NCBI RefSeq assembly: GCF_054482595.1
Contig: NZ_CM137008.1
DNA: 64,000 nt
Direction: 5' to 3' (one strand)
The translations under genes and the position numbers were made by a program. Below are positions 2,284-64,000 of this stretch, in pieces. How positions within the stretch are numbered: position 1 is the stretch's first letter; each line of letters starts with the position of its first letter. The notes beneath the pieces were generated by a model. The model did no database searches. It was given only the letters and a program-made list of their open reading frames with translations, and was not told where the DNA came from.

Positions 2284-4716
2284 TTACAACAACTGTGCCA
2301 GCCGGTTGATATCCGACTGAATCGCCCCGGCGGTGACGTCGCGCCCCGCGCCAGGCCCACGGATCACCAGCGGGTTATCGCGATACCAGCGGCTTTCGAT
2401 GGCAAAGACGTTGTCGCACGGCAGCAGTGATGCCAGCGGATGGTCTTCACGCACCGCCTCCACGCCCACACGCGCTTTGCCGTTGGCATCGAAACGCGCC
2501 ACGTAGCGCAGCACCAGCCCCATTTCGCGGGCCGCTTCCAGCCGTTGCACCATCTGCTCGTTAAGTTCATCGCCATTTTCAAAGAAATGGTCGATGCTGC
2601 CGCCTTCGCAATGAGCAGGCACCAGCGATTCCACACGTACCTGGTCCGGTTCAATGTTGTAACCCGCTTCACGCGCCAGAATCACCAGCTTGCGCATTAC
2701 GTCTTTGCCGGAGAGGTCGTCACGCGGATCAGGCTCGGTTAAGCCCTGCTGCCACGCCTGATCCACCAGCTCGGTAAACGGCACGCTACCGTCGAATTGC
2801 AGGAACAGCCAGGAGAGCGTGCCGGAGAAGATCCCACTGATCGACAAAATAGTATCGCCGCTGTCGATCAGATCGCGCACGGTGTGGTTGATCGGCAAGC
2901 CCGCACCGACGGTGGCGTTGTACAGCCAGTGACGCCCGGTTTTTTCGAAGGCGTCGTGGATCTGGCGATATTTATTGCTGTCGCTTGCTCCCGCCAGTTT
3001 GTTGGCACTGATGACGTGGAAACCGTGGCTGGCGAAATCAAGATACTGGTCAGCCAGCTGCTGGCTGGCGGTAACGTCCAGCACCACTAAATCATCATAC
3101 GGATGGGCGCGCATCCACAGGAAAAGCGACTCTTCATCCTGCTCGACCGCTTCATCGTTGAAGAAGGCTAACGCGCGGCTGGCGTCCAGCCCGTCATAAC
3201 TCAACAGACTGCGGCGGCTGTCCACCACGCCTGCCAGCACAAATTCAAAGCCGGTACGCGCCGAAAGCGAGCTCTGCTCGCGGGCGAACAGTTCCAGCCA
3301 GCGGGAACCGATATTGCCTTTGCCGAACAATACCAGGCCGATGCGTTTTTCTGCGCGGAAGACGGACTGATGCAGGCCCTGAATCAGGCTTTCGGTCGGG
3401 CCGGTGCGCAGTACTGCCACCAGGCTGATGCCGTCATCGGACTGCCAGGTAAACTCGACCGGCTGGCCTTTCAGTTGCTGCCAGAAGCGGTGGCAATGCA
3501 GCGGGTTACGGGTGACACCCGCCCCGACCATCGCCACCAGCGCCAGCCCCTGACGCAGGCGCAGTTCGCCAGGTAATCCCGCTTCGTCGAGGATTTTCAG
3601 CGCACTGTCGGCCACTTCTGAGGTGTAGCAAAATTGCAGCAACTGGCGATCGTTATGCACGCCAACCGCCAGTGGACGCACCTGGGCACGTTTCAGGATT
3701 TGGTCGATCTCTTTATGCGCCAGTTTGAAATCCTGACTGGCGGGCACCTGAAACTCAATCAAACAGACATCATCGTGGCTGGTGACAATACGCGCACCAG
3801 TACCGGAGGCCAGCACGCGTTCAATGCGCGTGGAACCTTGATCCGGCGTGTAGCTACAGCGCAGCTGCAGGTCGATTTCGCTGCCAGAAACTGGCTGTAA
3901 AGTACGGGCGTGAAGAACGGGAGCCGCCAGACGCGCCAGTTCGCTGGCCTCATCCAGACGCAGCAACGGCAGCAGGCAGGCATCTTTCACTTTACGCGGG
4001 TCGGCACTGTATACCCCGGCGACGTCGCTCCAGATGGTTACGCGAGAAACACCCGCCAGCGCACCGATTTGTGTCGCGGAATAGTCGGAACCGTTACGCC
4101 CCAGCAGCACCGTTTCACCGGCGTTGTTACGGCTGATAAACCCGGTCACCACCAGACGTTTACCCGGATGTTGTACCAGTAGCTGTTGCAGCAACGGGTA
4201 AGAAAGCCCTTCATCAACCTGCGGTTGCGCAGCGCGTTCAGCGCGTAAAAACTCGCGGGCATCAAGCCAGGCCGCTGGCAGCCCTTGTTGATTAAGTACC
4301 GCAGACATCAGTCGCGCCGACCACACTTCACCGTGGCCCACCACTTCCGCATACACTGCGTCGTTAATACCGCTGTCGAGCAGCGCCGCCAGGCGCTCAA
4401 GATCGCTGACAAAAGCGCTAATGAGGCTATCGGCTTCTTCGGCGGGTAGCAGGCCGCTAATCAGATCGCACTGATAGCGACGCAGCGTTTGTTGAACCTG
4501 ATGCGCAGAGAGACGATCGGTCTGGCTTAGTTTCAACCAGTTAATCAACTGGTTAGTGGTGCTACCGGCGGCGGAAACCACCATCATATCGTCAGGCTGA
4601 GAGTACTCCGCCATAATGCCCGCGACACGCAAATAACACTTCACATCAGCCAGACTACTGCCACCAAATTTATGCAGCTGACGACCTTTCGCCCCTGCCT
4701 GCGCAATCACACTCAT
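2284..4716 (-). CDS. metL: Bifunctional aspartokinase II / homoserine dehydrogenase II
   Basis: 810-aa ORF MSVIAQAGAKGRQLHKFGGSSLADVKCYLRVAGIMAEYSQPDDMMVVSAAGSTTNQL... recognised as MetL. Confidence 0.95.
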   Translation of the reverse strand: MSVIAQAGAKGRQLHKFGGSSLADVKCYLRVAGIMAEYSQPDDMMVVSAAGSTTNQLINWLKLSQTDRLSAHQVQQTLRRYQCDLISGLLPAEEADSLISAFVSDLERLAALLDSGINDAVYAEVVGHGEVWSARLMSAVLNQQGLPAAWLDAREFLRAERAAQPQVDEGLSYPLLQQLLVQHPGKRLVVTGFISRNNAGETVLLGRNGSDYSATQIGALAGVSRVTIWSDVAGVYSADPRKVKDACLLPLLRLDEASELARLAAPVLHARTLQPVSGSEIDLQLRCSYTPDQGSTRIERVLASGTGARIVTSHDDVCLIEFQVPASQDFKLAHKEIDQILKRAQVRPLAVGVHNDRQLLQFCYTSEVADSALKILDEAGLPGELRLRQGLALVAMVGAGVTRNPLHCHRFWQQLKGQPVEFTWQSDDGISLVAVLRTGPTESLIQGLHQSVFRAEKRIGLVLFGKGNIGSRWLELFAREQSSLSARTGFEFVLAGVVDSRRSLLSYDGLDASRALAFFNDEAVEQDEESLFLWMRAHPYDDLVVLDVTASQQLADQYLDFASHGFHVISANKLAGASDSNKYRQIHDAFEKTGRHWLYNATVGAGLPINHTVRDLIDSGDTILSISGIFSGTLSWLFLQFDGSVPFTELVDQAWQQGLTEPDPRDDLSGKDVMRKLVILAREAGYNIEPDQVRVESLVPAHCEGGSIDHFFENGDELNEQMVQRLEAAREMGLVLRYVARFDANGKARVGVEAVREDHPLASLLPCDNVFAIESRWYRDNPLVIRGPGAGRDVTAGAIQSDINRLAQLL

Positions 4717-58109: not shown

Positions 58110-58741
58110 AACGACGTGACACCATCGTGCGCTACACCGCGCCGGAACGTATCAACCACTGGATCACCGCCTTCTGCTTCATCCTGGCGGCGGTGAGCGG
58201 GCTGGGCTTTTTGTTCCCGTCCTTCAACTGGTTGATGCAAATCATGGGCACACCGCAGCTGGCGCGAATTCTGCACCCGTTTGTCGGCGTGGTTATGTTT
58301 GCCTCGTTCATCATCATGTTTTTCCGTTACTGGCATCACAACCTAATCAATCGGGATGATATCTTTTGGGCGAAGAATATTCGTAAGATCGTCGTCAACG
58401 AGGAAGTAGGTGACACCGGGCGTTATAACTTCGGTCAGAAATGCGTTTTCTGGGCGGCGATTATTTTCCTGGTTCTGCTGCTGGTGAGCGGCGTGATTAT
58501 CTGGCGTCCTTATTTTGCGCCTGCTTTCTCAATCCCGGTGATCCGATTCGCGTTAATGCTGCATTCATTTGCCGCAGTGGCGTTAATTGTGGTTATCATG
58601 GTGCATATCTACGCCGCCCTTTGGGTGAAAGGCACGATTACCGCCATGGTGGAAGGATGGGTTACCAGCGCCTGGGCGAAGAAACATCACCCGCGCTGGT
58701 ACCGTGAGGTCCGCAAGACAACGGAAAAGAAAGCTGAATGA
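58106..58741 (+). CDS. fdoI: Formate dehydrogenase-O cytochrome b556 (gamma) subunit
   Basis: 211-aa polytopic [40 protein letters not shown]...; overlaps fdoH stop. Confidence 0.9.
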
Positions 58742-59667
58742 GTATTCGCATAATCCCGCAAGATGAGCTGGGTTCGAGCGAGAAACGTACGGCGGATATG
58801 ATTCCGCCGTTATTGTTCCCTCGGCTCAAGAATTTATACAACCGCCGCGCCGAGCGTCTGCGCGAGCTGGCAGAAAATAATCCGCTGGGTGATTACCTGC
58901 GCTTTGCTGCGCTTATCGCCCACGCCCAGGAAGTGGTGCTGTACGACCATCCGCTGGAGATGGATCTGACCGCGCGCATTAAAGAAGCCAGCGCACAGGG
59001 CAAGCCCCCGCTGGATATTCACGTTCTGCCGCGTGATAAGCACTGGCAAAAGCTGCTGATGGCGCTGATTGCTGAGCTGAAACCTGAAATGAGCGGCCCG
59101 GCGCTGGCAGTGATTGAGAATCTGGAGAAGGCATCAACTCAGGAGCTGGAAGATATGGCCAGCGCACTGTTTGCCTCTGATTTCTCATCCGTCAGCAGCG
59201 ATAAAGCGCCGTTTATCTGGGCTGCACTGTCGCTCTACTGGGCGCAGATGGCCAATCTGATCCCCGGCAAAGCCCGCGCTGAATACGGCGAGCAACGTCA
59301 ATATTGCCCGGTTTGTGGTTCTATGCCGGTGTCCAGCATGGTGCAAATTGGCACCACTCAGGGTCTGCGTTACCTGCACTGCAACCTGTGTGAAACCGAA
59401 TGGCACGTAGTGCGCGTAAAATGCAGCAACTGCGAGCAGAGCGGCAAACTGCATTACTGGTCGCTGGATGACGAACAGGCCGCGATTAAAGCCGAAAGCT
59501 GCGATGACTGTGGCACTTACCTGAAGATTCTTTATCAGGAAAAAGAACCGAAAGTTGAAGCCGTGGCAGATGACCTCGCTTCTCTGGTACTGGACGCGCG
59601 AATGGAGCAAGAAGGCTATGCCCGCAGTTCCATCAACCCGTTCCTGTTTCCGGGTGAAGGGGAGTAA
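58738..59667 (+). CDS. fdhE: Formate dehydrogenase formation protein FdhE
   Basis: 309-aa [51 protein letters not shown]... with paired CxxC motifs; recognised as FdhE. Confidence 0.9.
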
Positions 59668-59859
59668 TCTCTGACGTTTTCCGGGTGGCGCTGGTCGCCC
59701 GGATTACAGCTCATAGGGTGTGACGACACCATCTCTCGTATTCCGCGTTACCCATTCAAGATCATGCCGCAATTGTCTGTTTGCCTCGTTCTTCCCTCCA
59801 ACACATCGATAAGGTTATGGGTATGTCACTGATGACAAGCGTATGATTGCCTGATGCGC

Positions 59860-59950
59860 TGCGCTTATCAGCCCTACCAATAAACTTCAATATATTGAAT
59901 TTGCATGACTTTGTAGGCCGGATAAGGCGTTCACGCCGCATCCGGCATGA
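59860..59950. repeat. REP/BIME element downstream of fdhE
   Basis: gcctgatgcgctgcgcttatcagccctac ... tgtaggccggataaggcgttcacgccgcatccggca. Confidence 0.85.
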
Positions 59951-59996
59951 ACAACGCGCACGTTGTCAGCAATCTGATTGACATCATTTTTTCCCA

Positions 59997-60215
59997 TTAC
60001 CATTCCTCGCGCAGCTTACGCTGATATTCGACACCATCTTCCTCACACCCTTGCCAGATGCCAGGAACACTGGTTCTTGCTGTTTGCGATTGATTTATCA
60101 GGTATTGATCTACCGCTTCCCTTAATAGGTCCGCACGAGGAAGATTACGCTGCACCTCGAGATCATCAAGTTGCTTAATCACCTCATTCGATAAATCGAG
60201 TAAAATTCTGCCCAT
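59997..60215 (-). CDS. yiiF: Small ribbon-helix-helix (CopG/MetJ-like) putative regulator
   Basis: [42 protein letters not shown]... (72 aa from ATG at 60215); gene name assigned from position next to fdhE. Confidence 0.65.
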
Positions 60216-60458
60216 ATCTATACCTACCAGAGAGTTCATAAATATCTCGCCAATATCATTTTTGAATCTATGGAGAGAAAAGTACCCTTGTCGAATCTTT
60301 AAAGAAAGCTCATTTACGAATCATTTTTTATTTTTGCGAGGCGTTTTCCAGATATGATGTAACAGTTGCAGTTATTATAAGTTCAAGTAAAACAACCTTG
60401 TATTAATACCAGAATAAGGGCATCTGGTTTTTTATATTCAAGAATAAAAAAATTTTTG

Positions 60459-60677
60459 TCATTCCTTATGATCCTTACACTGATCATAAACACCTACTGT
60501 CTCACCCCTTTGCCTGCCTCTCTTTGCTTTACGCACCGGAAATTGCTGCCGCTCCAGATATTGCTCAACCGCTTCGCGTAAAATTGCAGATCGTGAAACC
60601 TTACGCCAGCCCCGAAGCTTGTTCAGCCGTTTAATTGCCTCTTCTGATAAATGAAGAAAAACCGTATTCATCGCCAT
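60459..60677 (-). CDS. yiiE: Small ribbon-helix-helix (CopG/MetJ-like) putative regulator, paralog of the upstream gene
   Basis: MAMNTVFLHLSEEAIKRLNKLRGWRKVSRSAILREAVEQYLERQQ... (72 aa from ATG at 60677); shares the LxxEAVxQYL RHH signature and a homologous upstream region with yiiF. Confidence 0.65.
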   Translation of the reverse strand: MAMNTVFLHLSEEAIKRLNKLRGWRKVSRSAILREAVEQYLERQQFPVRKAKRGRQRGETVGVYDQCKDHKE

Positions 60678-61262
60678 TACCACCACCTTACATATATTAC
60701 TCATTAATGTATGTGCGAAAATTACGCCGGAAAATCATTTAAAAAAAGCGGATTTTTGCATGTTGTTTTGTTTTTGCGAGGTGTTTTCCAGAAATAATAA
60801 GAGTGTTGCAGTTGTTTCATTTATTACTCAAAAATGGTTTAGTTATCGCCCAGGATGAGTTATGGATGCTATGAATATATTATATTCAGAGATATTTATT
60901 TGCATAATCTGAATGGTGTAGCCGAAAAACGTCAGCATCCTAACAGCACCAGGATTTAAGGTGAAATTAATCATCCATCACAGACCGGTCAGTACTGCCA
61001 CCAACCGGTCTTTACTTGTTCATCGTTATAATTTTGTTGGTAACAGTTCGGGAAACAAGGAATTCCTTCCGGAACCCCCCGGTATCATCCGATAGCATTG
61101 ACGTCAATCATCAGCGCGACGATGAGTTTTTTTAATCGCATCATAGGGTGGCGACGTTCAGCACGATTACGGGTCATAGCAAAACTCCTGGGCAGGCGAC
61201 CACTATGCCGCTTTCACAGGAGTTCTGAATGCTAGTGCTTTCTGTATGGCATAACCATGCCT

Positions 61263-61553
61263 CTAACGGTTAAGTGCTTGCAGCACATGTTGCGGATCAT
61301 TGGCAATCGCTCGCAGCAAAGCCTTTGCAGGCCCGGTCGGTGAACGTCGCCCCTGCTCCCAGTTACGCAACGTGTCTACGCTTACAGAAATAAGATCGGC
61401 AAATTTAGATTGTGACAACCCTGAAGCGCGGCGTATTTCTTTGATTTTCATAGCATCAACTTCAAAAGTCCGCGAAGGCTGTCGCGTTCCTTCAATAATT
61501 TCATTCATCTGGGCCATGCTGTGAGTCAACCGCTCAAAAAGTGCCTTATCCAT
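61263..61553 (-). CDS. XRE-family HTH protein, putative antitoxin (HigA-like)
   Basis: 96-aa ORF MDKALFERLTHSMAQMNEIIEGTRQPSRTFEVDAMKIKEIRRASGLSQSKFADLISVSVDTLRNWEQGRRSPTGPAKALL...; HTH_XRE signature; starts directly after the upstream toxin ORF stop. Confidence 0.8.
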   Translation of the reverse strand: MDKALFERLTHSMAQMNEIIEGTRQPSRTFEVDAMKIKEIRRASGLSQSKFADLISVSVDTLRNWEQGRRSPTGPAKALLRAIANDPQHVLQALNR

Positions 61554-61865
61554 TTACCACCTCGTATTTAACAACCGGAGCATTGCTTTTTCCTGGGGAG
61601 ACAGATCATCTTTAATACCCTTACGATAAATAAGCAGTAATCTGATCTCATAATGTTTAACCTGATGAAAGTAAATAACCCTGACACCAGCACGTTTCCC
61701 CTTTCCTCCTGAAACCCATCGAACCTTTCTTAACCCACCAGTTTCAGGTATTACCTCACCATAGTCAGGATTCAAGGCCAGGAAAAACTGAAAACGACTG
61801 AATTCATCGTCGGTCAGCAGTTTTTGAACATCTTCAGTAAAAATTTCCGTTTCGATGAAGAGCAT
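61554..61865 (-). CDS. RelE/HigB-like type II toxin (mRNA interferase family), toxin-first operon
   Basis: 103-aa ORF MLFIETEIFTEDVQKLLTDDEFSRFQFFLALNPDYGEVIPETGGLRKVRWVSGGKGKRAGVRVIYFHQVKHYEIRLLLIYRKGIKDDLSPQE...; small basic protein of RelE-like pattern upstream of an XRE partner. Confidence 0.7.
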   Translation of the reverse strand: MLFIETEIFTEDVQKLLTDDEFSRFQFFLALNPDYGEVIPETGGLRKVRWVSGGKGKRAGVRVIYFHQVKHYEIRLLLIYRKGIKDDLSPQEKAMLRLLNTRW

Positions 61866-62018
61866 AATTATACGCCATTGGCTTAGAGTAACAATCCTTT
61901 TTGTACGTCATTGACGTACCCTTGAAACCACTAGCTTACTGATAGTGCTCCAGCAAAACCACGTCTCTGCCGGGTTTGTCTTTAGATTTGCGAGGCGCTT
62001 TCCAGATTTTTCACGCCC

Positions 62019-63002
62019 GTGAATTTCCCTGTATCCATCCAGCAAAAACGGGTGTATAAGACTGTGCATTCATACAGCAAAATAAGTTCTACTATGGCAC
62101 TGGAAAAAGGAATTGCAGAGTTAGTCGAAAAGTTTATCGCTGCGGGTCGCCCCTCATCGCGTCAACAAAGTATTGCGCAGCGCAGGGAGGGCTATATCGC
62201 CAGCGCTGTCCTTGCGGGTGAGACAGAAACGCGGGTAGATATTCAGACTATCGAACTTGAAGGGATGACCTTACGAATAGTGTCGCCGCTGAATGCCCCG
62301 ACATTACTCCCGACGATAATTTATTACTACGGTGGCTGTTTTGTTAGCGGCGGGTTCGCAACTCACGACAACCAGCTGCGCCAGTTAGCCTATTACGGGC
62401 AATGTCGGGTTATTGCCGTCCAGTATCGGCTGGCACCGGAACATACTTTCCCCGCCGCCCATGATGATGCGCAACGAGGTGCAGAAATAGTCTGGCAACA
62501 CGCCGAACGACTCGGCGTTGATAAACAACGTATAACTCTTGCCGGTGACAGTGCGGGCGGACATCTGGCGCTGGTAACTGCTTTGCGATTAAAGCGTGCT
62601 GGCGAGTGGCAACCGGCACAACTCATCTTAATTTATCCTATGCTTGATGCGACTGCGCATTTCGAAAGCTACATACGCAATGGTCACGATTACATCATCA
62701 CACGCGACACTTTACTGAGCGGCTTTGAGATGTATCTGCCAGGCATTGAACGCAGGCATCCTGAAGCCAGCCCTCTTTGGCGCGATGATTTCAATGGCTT
62801 GCCACCTGTACATATCATTACCGCTGAATACGACCCACTTTGCGATGAAGGTGAAGCGTTGTATCACCGCATGACAGGGCAAGGAGTGCAATGCACCTGC
62901 CAACGCTACCTTGGCGTTATCCACGGATTTTTTCAGTTAGGTGGTATCAGCGAGGCCGCGCGATCGGCACTACGGGATGTTGCCTGGAGAGCGGGAAGGT
63001 AA
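62019..63002 (+). CDS. Alpha/beta-hydrolase, hormone-sensitive-lipase-family esterase (Aes-like)
   Basis: Oxyanion-hole region YYYGGCFVSGG, nucleophile elbow GDSAGG, C-terminal GVIHGFF; true start may be the internal ATG at 62094 (MALEKGIAEL...). Confidence 0.75.
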   Translation: MNFPVSIQQKRVYKTVHSYSKISSTMALEKGIAELVEKFIAAGRPSSRQQSIAQRREGYIASAVLAGETETRVDIQTIELEGMTLRIVSPLNAPTLLPTIIYYYGGCFVSGGFATHDNQLRQLAYYGQCRVIAVQYRLAPEHTFPAAHDDAQRGAEIVWQHAERLGVDKQRITLAGDSAGGHLALVTALRLKRAGEWQPAQLILIYPMLDATAHFESYIRNGHDYIITRDTLLSGFEMYLPGIERRHPEASPLWRDDFNGLPPVHIITAEYDPLCDEGEALYHRMTGQGVQCTCQRYLGVIHGFFQLGGISEAARSALRDVAWRAGR

Positions 63003-63065
63003 CTTCGGACCTGGGCCCTGAAAAGGTTTTCAGATTGAAAACCTTTTCAGTCAAGTAAAACGCCC

Positions 63066-64000
63066 CTACTCTTCTTCGTTCCCGCCCTCTTCATACGGGC
63101 CAAATGGCTTCGCGGGCAGAACGATATACGTGCCTTCAAACACTGCACCCGGCGTCTCGTCGCCAAAGATTTCAACTTGCATCTGCACCCGTGCTTTTCG
63201 TCCGCGCGCCAGACGGTCGAGATCGCCGCTTAAGGCACCAAGGTCGGCTACCGCATGAGGTTTACCGCTAATCGGCTTGCTGTAGCGGATATGCGCATCC
63301 GCCAGAATAATCGTTCCGCCGAGATGGCGTTCGCGCAGCATCAGCCAGATAAGCCCCCAACCGGTGAGCGTCGCCAGCGAGAATAAACTCCCGGCAAACA
63401 GCGTATGGTGCGGATTCTGATTGCCGGTTTCCGGCATGGTGGTGATAAATTTTTGCCCGGTATATTGTTGAATACGCACGCCCATTTTTTCACTAAGCGG
63501 GATATGTTCGTACCACGCCTGTTGCAGCTGCGCGCACCAGTCGCCGCGATGCAAAATATCATCCAGAGTGGCGACGGGCTTAATCATCAAAAAATGGCGA
63601 ATCGGCGTGGTGGTTGGCGTGGTGATTTCTCCCTGATTAACAAACCCCAGCTTGGCGAAAAACTCCACCGCGTCTTCACGGGCGCTACAGGTCACGCGCT
63701 TAACGCCTTCCTGACGCGCCACCGACTCCAGGGTCATCGCCATCAGCGTTCCTAACCCTTTGTCCTGCACGTCCGGGTGAACGGCCATAAAGCGAATGGA
63801 CGCTTCATTGTCGGCATTAATATACAGTCGGCCTACCGCCACCAGATTACCCTGCTCGTCGACGACCATCTGGTGATGCGCCATCGCATCCCACGCGTCG
63901 CGTTCCGAACCTTTTGGTTGATGCAGGGGCTTACGCAACATTTCCCAGCGAAACTGATAGTAACGCTCTAATTCTTCTTCTGTTTGTGGAACCCGAAGGT
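63066..64000 (-). CDS. yiiD: GNAT acetyltransferase / thioesterase fusion protein YiiD, C-terminal part (start beyond window end)
   Basis: Frame open to the window end; ...[64 protein letters not shown]... recognised as YiiD. Confidence 0.85.

Follow-up and report, generated by a model that had tools for sequence, protein, structure and literature searches.

Two small genes in tandem, yiiF and yiiE, lie downstream of fdhE in a 64-kb window of an Escherichia coli chromosome (hereafter the window, meaning the whole stretch of DNA analysed, to which all coordinates refer) and raise the question of where they came from and what they may still do. Both encode 72-residue ribbon-helix-helix (RHH) proteins, and a preliminary description had taken them for orphan antitoxin-like repressors or remnants of degraded toxin-antitoxin (TA) modules; the few papers naming either gene did not address their origin. 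Here, we report that yiiF is the antitoxin gene (vapB) of a VapBC module whose toxin gene (vapC) has decayed, that yiiE is a tandem copy made in Escherichia with only its DNA-binding half under selection, and that the motif upstream of both is likely a shared cis element. We give this combined reading a probability of about 0.8.

The paralogy first described was confirmed: YiiF and YiiE were identical at 24/62 residues (39%; BLASTP, E = 2e-12), and the residues common to both included a ten-residue stretch and ILREAVEQYL, which takes in the helix LREAV(D/E)QYL. Their intergenic gap (60216-60458) measured 243 bp, in agreement with the ~240 bp given earlier, and each gene indeed had its own upstream block (71% identity over 100 nt, with 19/20 positions matching in the core), to which a third copy of the core can be added (Table 1). 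YiiF was 100% identical to residues 9-80 of PDB entry 2K5J. The N-terminal RHH feature of VapB was recognised in YiiE by Pfam RHH_1 (E = 2.1e-11, above the gathering cut-off) and in YiiF (RHH_1 E = 0.0063, below the cut-off) by its identity to 2K5J and by orthologues carrying PF01402.

The minus-strand open reading frames (ORFs) run over 59997..60239 and 60459..60704, with internal ATGs giving the 72-residue K-12-style proteins, and the PGAP annotation extends yiiF to 60239 (80 aa). The true start of yiiF was ambiguous, lying either at 60237-60239 (80 aa) or at 60213-60215 (72 aa). The longer form has a conserved GGAGG before it in loci with an intact vapC (vapC+ loci), mutated here, and its start codon is ATT, ATA or GTG in some species; the ATG of the shorter form (MGRI) is invariant. 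One YiiF variant (P0004) bears the UniRef label 'Thymol sensitivity protein'.

yiiF and the remains of vapC

Contrary to the claim that the pair has no obvious adjacent toxin partner, a degraded vapC lies directly downstream of yiiF, in three minus-strand fragments (A to C; Table 1). At fragment A, the local ORF begins MVMGK, as against MVMAK or MVMVK in VapC. Fragment B aligned with positions 4026-4089 of the vapC+ locus of E. coli 2016C-3878 (L007; blastn, 75% identity, E = 2.6e-6, two single-base gaps), and fragment C aligned with VapC residues 100-124 as HDLEWVTRNTRD-----GVVTPYEL (tblastn, E = 2.7e-5); DNA at 59600-59759 was 88% identical to the same vapC+ strain. About 215 nt of vapC are deleted between fragments B and C. 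The gene is further interrupted by an insertion of the repetitive extragenic palindromic (REP)/bacterial interspersed mosaic element type, whose palindromes (59870-59952) gave partial Rfam matches to the REP-derived naRNA4 and ES036, both below the gathering score. A VapC hidden Markov model (HMM) run on the spacer scored above 998/1000 dinucleotide shuffles (2/1000 reached the real score). An intact PIN-domain gene overlapping the antitoxin stop codon was absent from the window; orthologous loci have one, as do 57 E. coli genomes.

YiiF matched the VapB chain of the Klebsiella pneumoniae VapBC crystal structure over residues 1-72 (7BY2_A; E = 1.7e-27, ~68% identity), and its 21-residue tail was nearly identical to the tails of partnered VapBs. 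In 7BY2 and 7BY3, chain A is labelled 'CopG family transcriptional regulator' and chain B 'Ribonuclease VapC'; 7BY2_B is identical to the VapC encoded right after the yiiF orthologue at the syntenic locus of K. pneumoniae ATCC 13883 (L033). YiiE matched 7BY2_A at residues 3-45 only (E = 1.6e-7).

The comparison of the locus across Enterobacteriaceae that the preliminary description had called for was made with one genome per species (41 loci, 37 of them non-Escherichia). A yiiF orthologue with vapC sequence directly 3' of it was present in 37/37 non-Escherichia loci, spanning Citrobacter, Pseudocitrobacter, Klebsiella, Kluyvera, Enterobacter, Trabulsiella, Kosakonia, Lelliottia, Cedecea, Buttiauxella, Franconibacter, Superficieibacter, and others. 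The toxin gene was complete or almost complete in most and fragmentary in three (L027, L030, and L034), and most of the 37 loci were flanked by fdhE and by an alpha/beta hydrolase gene or fabY. Citrobacter freundii and Salmonella enterica diarizonae, for example, carry the yiiF orthologue between the hydrolase gene or fabY and fdhE, overlapping a 124-aa PIN-domain gene; the overlap recurs at this locus in Klebsiella and some 30 further species. Within E. coli, an intact vapC was found in 57/5426 complete genomes (~1%), in the order fabY ... yiiE - vapB - vapC - fdhE; these alleles are chromosomal and at this same locus. The comparison shows the ancestral Enterobacteriaceae order to be fabY, a divergent alpha/beta hydrolase gene, vapB-vapC, and fdhE.

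Because three vapC fragments remain after yiiF and vapBC is syntenic elsewhere, yiiF is an orphan vapB left by a former VapBC module and not half of a working one. A REP-type insertion together with an internal deletion destroyed vapC here, as in most E. coli, and so orphaned yiiF.

The decay probably extends to the promoter. In all vapC+ loci, including that of 2016C-3878, the promoter-proximal block of yiiF reads (A)TGATATACTGGAGGTATATATG and holds an extended -10-like TGnTATACT, the palindrome ATATAC-N5-GTATAT (which would be the VapB operator), and GGAGG. The window has TGATATTGGCGAGATATTTATG in its place, as do K-12 and the vapC-less strain AVS0970 (L008), and decay of this kind was seen only in the vapC-less alleles examined. 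The palindrome, kept in all vapC+ loci, reads ATATTGGCGAGATAT in the window, where no palindromic operator was left. The ratio of non-synonymous to synonymous substitution rates (dN/dS, or omega) of yiiF against the vapC+ E. coli allele was 0.26; a Citrobacter-Salmonella comparison of intact vapB gave 0.05. We conclude that constraint on yiiF is relaxed and not abolished. YiiF would still form an RHH dimer with an intact VapC-binding tail. Because its proximal promoter/operator and its GGAGG, which resembles a Shine-Dalgarno sequence, are decayed and its constraint is relaxed, it is probably a weakly expressed relic, which might at most neutralise an incoming VapC of the same family.

Origin and selection of yiiE

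All 114 YiiE homologues came from Escherichia or Shigella; no yiiE-like gene was found outside these two genera, and none was present in the hydrolase-vapB spacers examined. YiiE is homologous to VapB along its whole length, and the yiiE and yiiF leaders are homologous over a stretch that begins ~30 nt upstream of the motif and ends at the start codon. Together, these homologies indicate that yiiE arose in the Escherichia lineage, before vapC was lost, by tandem duplication of a unit comprising the motif, the leader, and vapB.

Ten pairwise comparisons among five alleles gave 0 non-synonymous vs 1-7 synonymous differences each in residues 1-52 of yiiE. The tail (residues 53-72) differs between strains, with omega of 0.2-2.7; the toxin-binding tail of VapB was recognised in YiiF and not in YiiE. 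The invariant domain and the drifting tail argue that the DNA-binding half is maintained and the former toxin-binding half is not. With the DNA-binding domain strictly conserved and the tail drifting freely, YiiE would most likely be a stand-alone RHH repressor of this promoter cluster and not an antitoxin. The preliminary description of the pair as orphan antitoxins or TA remnants thus fits yiiF, and extends to yiiE only in the sense of an antitoxin-derived paralogue.

The search for toxin remnants by profile and translation that had been proposed for both genes was positive after yiiF and found none of significance after yiiE. There, within the 68 nt after yiiE, a candidate 'EYKKPDALILVLIQ' at 60398-60439 (PIN-like 'KKPDALILVLIQ') resembling the PIN segment KLPDAIILATAQ was rejected as not significant, since 121/1000 shuffles were as good.

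Natural hybrids joining the N-terminal part of YiiE to the C-terminal part of YiiF, and the reciprocal form, occurred in E. coli, E. albertii, and a metagenome (P0100, P0103, P0106, P0209, P0211, P0218, and P0197), with the crossover in LREAV(D/E)QYL.

The upstream motif and rival explanations

The element shared by the leaders has the consensus TGGAAAG-N3-CTCGCAAA, conserved across genera. Three matches were found in the window versus 0.04 expected, and 0/100 shuffles reached three. Its distance upstream of the vapB ATG is 134-135 nt in most of the 37 loci and 148-150 nt in the most distant genera, and its flanking sequences are all but random across loci. In a 24-species alignment of the hydrolase-vapB spacer, three footprints stood out, namely the motif, the proximal block, and a LexA-like box close to where the hydrolase gene begins. 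K-12 carries both the yiiE and the yiiF copies.

The motif also occurred in other genera and at other loci. In Pseudocitrobacter (L013, positions 1745 and 2890) and Klebsiella spallanzanii (L034, positions 1418 and 2891), a HigB-2/NadS module like the one in the window stands between two motif copies in direct repeat, which are identical over 19 and 28 nt, respectively, including species-specific variants, with no homology outside. In E. whittamii (L049), the hydrolase-side spacer runs through a single motif straight into the yiiE leader. In the same locus (3337-3404), the yiiF-promoter motif is joined to the 3' end of vapC, with yiiF and most of vapC deleted; the join lies at a short CGCAA-like microhomology. 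A perfect 20-nt copy, TTCTGGAAAGCGGCTCGCAA, was found in the E. coli dinG-ybiA spacer (L052, 2441-2545), at a distance of 47 nt from the SOS box of dinG and 25 nt upstream of ybiA. The latter is a NADAR-domain gene; among the relatives listed for it, the close enterobacterial ones all belonged to Escherichia or Shigella, and the rest were ~70% identical and came from unrelated bacteria. No second copy was found downstream of ybiA. In a P4-like element, the motif lies 20 nt from a CTGT-N8-CCAG box, before an integrase-like ORF, and weaker copies occurred near rayT/yafL and, in Klebsiella, near uspF. E. coli genomes had a median of three detectable copies, one of them a probable chance match inside livM. 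Among the matches listed in a metagenome scan, most were chance matches in unrelated contigs, and 'plasmid' matches were discarded as chromosomal fragments filed as plasmids. The motif string was not found in the literature searched.

Could the motif be a promoter for each small module? For a sigma-54 (-24/-12) promoter, the spacing fits, as TGG-N9-TCGC places GG and GC (GG-N10-GC) as in TGGCACG-N4-TTGC, and the variable N3 falls in the sigma-54 spacer; glnAp2 also has TCGC at -12. On a weight matrix built from 163 ChIP-seq sites, however, the motif scored 4.7-5.6 bits against a site median of 12.9, below 99% of real sites, and 240-350 other 17-mers in the window scored at least as high. Neither the high- nor the low-stringency K-12 ChIP-seq list has a sigma-54 peak at yiiE or yiiF (PMC4591121), and the motif bases that depart from the sigma-54 consensus are invariant across genera. 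We therefore ruled this reading out on the matrix score and the absent peaks and regard it as very improbable indeed. Other promoter classes (sigma-70, sigma-E, sigma-32, and sigma-28, on either strand) found no conserved -10/-35 partner at proper spacing in the 24-species alignment, and a simple promoter scan gave only gene-proximal candidates. A conserved leader RNA structure was rejected (RNAalifold, 0 pairs over 22 sequences; Rfam, only partial REP-derived matches), as was a mini-ORF across the motif, whose start codons are not conserved and whose codons the variable N3 changes. The motif also bears a putative likeness to the Ada box (AA[A/G]-N6-GCAA). What the alignments predict is that the motif is a selected cis element; ranked by preference, it might be a distal operator for RHH proteins, the target of some other protein that contacts the major groove at two successive turns, or a point at which modules are captured. 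Our leading guess is a distal operator common to VapB-family RHH proteins.

A junction or attachment-like site for insertion and excision of modules, with the locus as a miniature cassette array, would explain why, in Pseudocitrobacter and K. spallanzanii, the HigB-2/NadS module is bounded by two motif copies beyond which homology is absent, why one motif fuses the hydrolase-side spacer to the yiiE leader in E. whittamii, and why the motif precedes the Escherichia-only accessory gene ybiA and the integrase-like ORF of the P4-like element. We nonetheless find it doubtful: the locus has no recombinase gene, the motif has no inverted-repeat core, ybiA is not followed by a second copy, and plain tandem duplication accounts for yiiE and yiiF, whose homology runs well beyond the motif. 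The motif is equally conserved in single-module genomes, which points to a function in expression. Broader still, the motif could be an enterobacterial cis element new to the literature, placed before accessory or TA-type genes beside LexA boxes (vapBC, yiiE, the HigB-2 module, and ybiA beside dinG), read by VapB-family RHH proteins or serving module capture; we offer this as a speculative idea, more likely wrong than right. If these proteins do read it, YiiF and YiiE would regulate a small regulon including the neighbouring toxin module and ybiA.

Returning to the reading of a decayed VapBC module with a duplicated antitoxin gene, several observations weigh against it. AlphaFold2 monomers of YiiF (pLDDT 72.7) and YiiE (pLDDT 61.5) were all-helical and did not reproduce the RHH strand, and Foldseek with these monomers gave no PDB match. 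In the RHH fold, strand pairing is expected only in the dimer, and the monomer outcome is probably uninformative for that reason. DNA binding by either protein, and any repression, we infer from homology alone. The beta-strands differ (NTVFLHL in YiiE, GRILLDL in YiiF), which argues against both proteins reading one identical motif, and the motif lacks the internal symmetry that operators read by RHH proteins usually have. For both genes, truncated alleles (51-69 aa) are on record, and the intact pair was present at >=80% coverage in 4142/5426 genomes, suggesting that both genes may be dispensable. Such facts could be taken to mean that the genes are functionless relics heading for loss that survive because they are small and harmless. 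The mutated proximal promoter/operator and GGAGG of yiiF, the common truncated and hybrid alleles, the 24% of complete genomes without an intact pair, and the AT-richness of the region (34-44% GC in the yiiF-yiiE stretch vs 53-57% in the flanking core genes) all favour that view, as does a review according to which yiiF lies in a region that is active in bicyclomycin data sets on transcription termination. Neutrality, however, predicts ~3x more non-synonymous than synonymous changes, against the zero found in the RHH domain of yiiE; omega of yiiF is below 1; and the upstream motif is retained in every copy. We consider neutral loss of both genes unlikely, though not negligible. Ordinary stand-alone transcription factors with distal targets, their antitoxin likeness being incidental, would fit the strong constraint on the DNA-binding domain of yiiE and the motif copy before ybiA, a distal target if the RHH proteins read it. 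Binding of the motif by YiiE or YiiF is only putative, though, and a TA origin is shown by the vapC fragments, by the conserved toxin-binding tail of YiiF, and by its orthology to a VapB of known crystal structure, making an incidental likeness improbable.

The gene order around the pair is given in Table 1, and the window is 100% identical to E. coli strain XH990 at 59600-63100; K-12 has yiiE and yiiF without the two-gene module and without the hydrolase gene. Inside fdoI, positions 58259-58275 (+) are an exact copy, CTGGCGCGAATTCTGCA, of the intragenic sigma-54 binding site IS47, found in K-12 by ChIP-seq (PMC4591121).

Table 1. Positions of the features discussed, in window coordinates
Feature	Position	Strand	Remarks
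fdoG-fdoH-fdoI-fdhE	fdhE end at 59667	+	
vapC pseudogene fragment C	59704..59762	-	~last 20 codons + stop; tblastn
vapC pseudogene fragment B	59763..59824	-	5' PIN segment (DTNILIDLFSGR...), frameshifted; blastn to L007
REP/BIME-type insertion interrupting vapC	59825..59987	.	no homology to vapC+ locus
vapC pseudogene fragment A	59988..59997	-	start codon overlaps yiiF stop (TAATGG); homology with L007 ends at 59988
yiiF	59997-60215	-	72-aa RHH protein, starts MGRILLDL; orphan VapB antitoxin
Decayed promoter-proximal block of yiiF	60237..60260	-	AATGATATTGGCGAGATATTTATG; comparison with vapC+ loci
Leader block of yiiF	60277-60376	-	duplicated
Motif copy 1	60333..60352	-	TCTGGAAAACGCCTCGCAAA; TGG 135 nt upstream of yiiF ATG
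yiiE	60459-60677	-	72-aa RHH protein, starts MAMNTVFL; Escherichia/Shigella-specific tandem paralogue of yiiF/vapB
Leader block of yiiE	60717-60816	-	duplicated
Motif copy 2	60773..60792	-	TCTGGAAAACACCTCGCAAA; upstream of yiiE
Two-gene TA module	61263..61865	-	intact
NadS/MqsA-like HTH protein	61263-61553	-	
HigB-2-like toxin	61554-61865	-	
Motif copy 3	61987..62006	-	TCTGGAAAGCGCCTCGCAAA; upstream of HigB-2-like gene, homologous to hydrolase-side motif of other genera
LexA-box-like site	62062..62077	+	CTGTGCATTCATACAG; ends 16 nt before hydrolase start
alpha/beta hydrolase	62094-63002	+	
fabY/yiiD		-	

The two-gene module has the HigB-2/HigA-2-type arrangement of a toxin-first order and a helix-turn-helix (HTH) antitoxin partner. 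Its 103-aa HigB-2-like protein matched PDB HigB-2 chains (5JA8 and 5JA9; E = 1e-18 to 1e-19), and the partner scored 60.7 bits against a cut-off of 60 for NCBIfam NadS, with an MqsA-family match and HTH_3 at E = 7.5e-10. That the locus is prone to such capture, as the preliminary description had suggested, is supported because different modules occupy the same spot in different genomes: two other genera share the module of the window, S. diarizonae has another HigB/HTH pair there, and some E. coli carry DUF6708 genes. Strain AVS0970 (L008, 2282-3895), for one, has a DUF6708 gene and a hypothetical gene between yiiF and yiiE, and its HigB-2-like gene is frameshifted. The ~135 nt downstream of the NadS-like gene (61118-61253, minus strand) are ~80% conserved with Pseudocitrobacter and 75% over 80 nt with K. 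spallanzanii, and include a 30-codon ORF as well as an imperfect inverted repeat of 19 nt at 61180-61227.

The site at 62062-62077 is the sole CTGT-N8-ACAG in the window. It lies at a promoter and is conserved in orthologous regions, CTGTaTg.ATaTaCAG standing at the same place in 24 species, as expected of a LexA box, which suggests a candidate SOS-controlled esterase and, perhaps, divergent TA genes under SOS control.

Comparison with known systems

Existing annotation covers yiiE, yiiF, and the RHH fold, and a crystal structure of the orthologous VapBC is available. What the present reading adds is an origin for two long-standing K-12 y-genes, yiiF as the antitoxin half of VapBC and yiiE as its lineage-specific duplicate, together with a case of a duplicated antitoxin with only the DNA-binding half under selection. 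Stages of TA decay can be seen within one species, from intact vapBC (~1%) through an orphan with a fragmented toxin gene (most genomes) to hybrid, truncated, or deleted forms (the rest). Apart from the motif, this is ordinary TA decay; anything new could come only from the motif.

Integron cassettes and pdif modules are likewise small modules, many of them TA pairs, bounded by a repeated short site. The likeness of the present locus to them is one of layout only, as no integrase, Xer-like dyad, or attC-like structure was found. The neighbouring module resembles Vibrio cholerae HigB-2/HigA-2 (5JA8 and 5JA9) in its 103-aa protein (match of ~1e-18), toxin-first order, and HTH partner, and differs in that the partner is assigned to the NadS family by NCBI, with an MqsA-like match, and in that the module lies between motif copies. 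In FitAB of Neisseria gonorrhoeae, an RHH antitoxin (FitA) is paired with a PIN toxin (FitB) and acts on its own promoter by binding an inverted repeat there; the likeness is one of mode of working, and membership of this group would be only putative. Orphan chromosomal antitoxins, such as the Erwinia chromosomal ccd, are kept without a functional toxin and could neutralise a related incoming toxin. Unlike the setting of such anti-addiction orphans, the E. coli vapC+ alleles are chromosomal and at the same locus, and a meeting of YiiF with VapC in trans is only putative.

The K. pneumoniae VapBC of 7BY2/7BY3, an RHH VapB with a PIN ribonuclease VapC, resembles YiiF along its full length, tail included (~68% identity), and is encoded at the same hydrolase-fdhE locus with the same upstream motif and proximal palindrome. 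The window differs from it in having vapC as a three-piece pseudogene, a decayed palindrome, and yiiE upstream; the vapC+ strains, together with this structure, permit direct tests of whether the orphan neutralises its former toxin.

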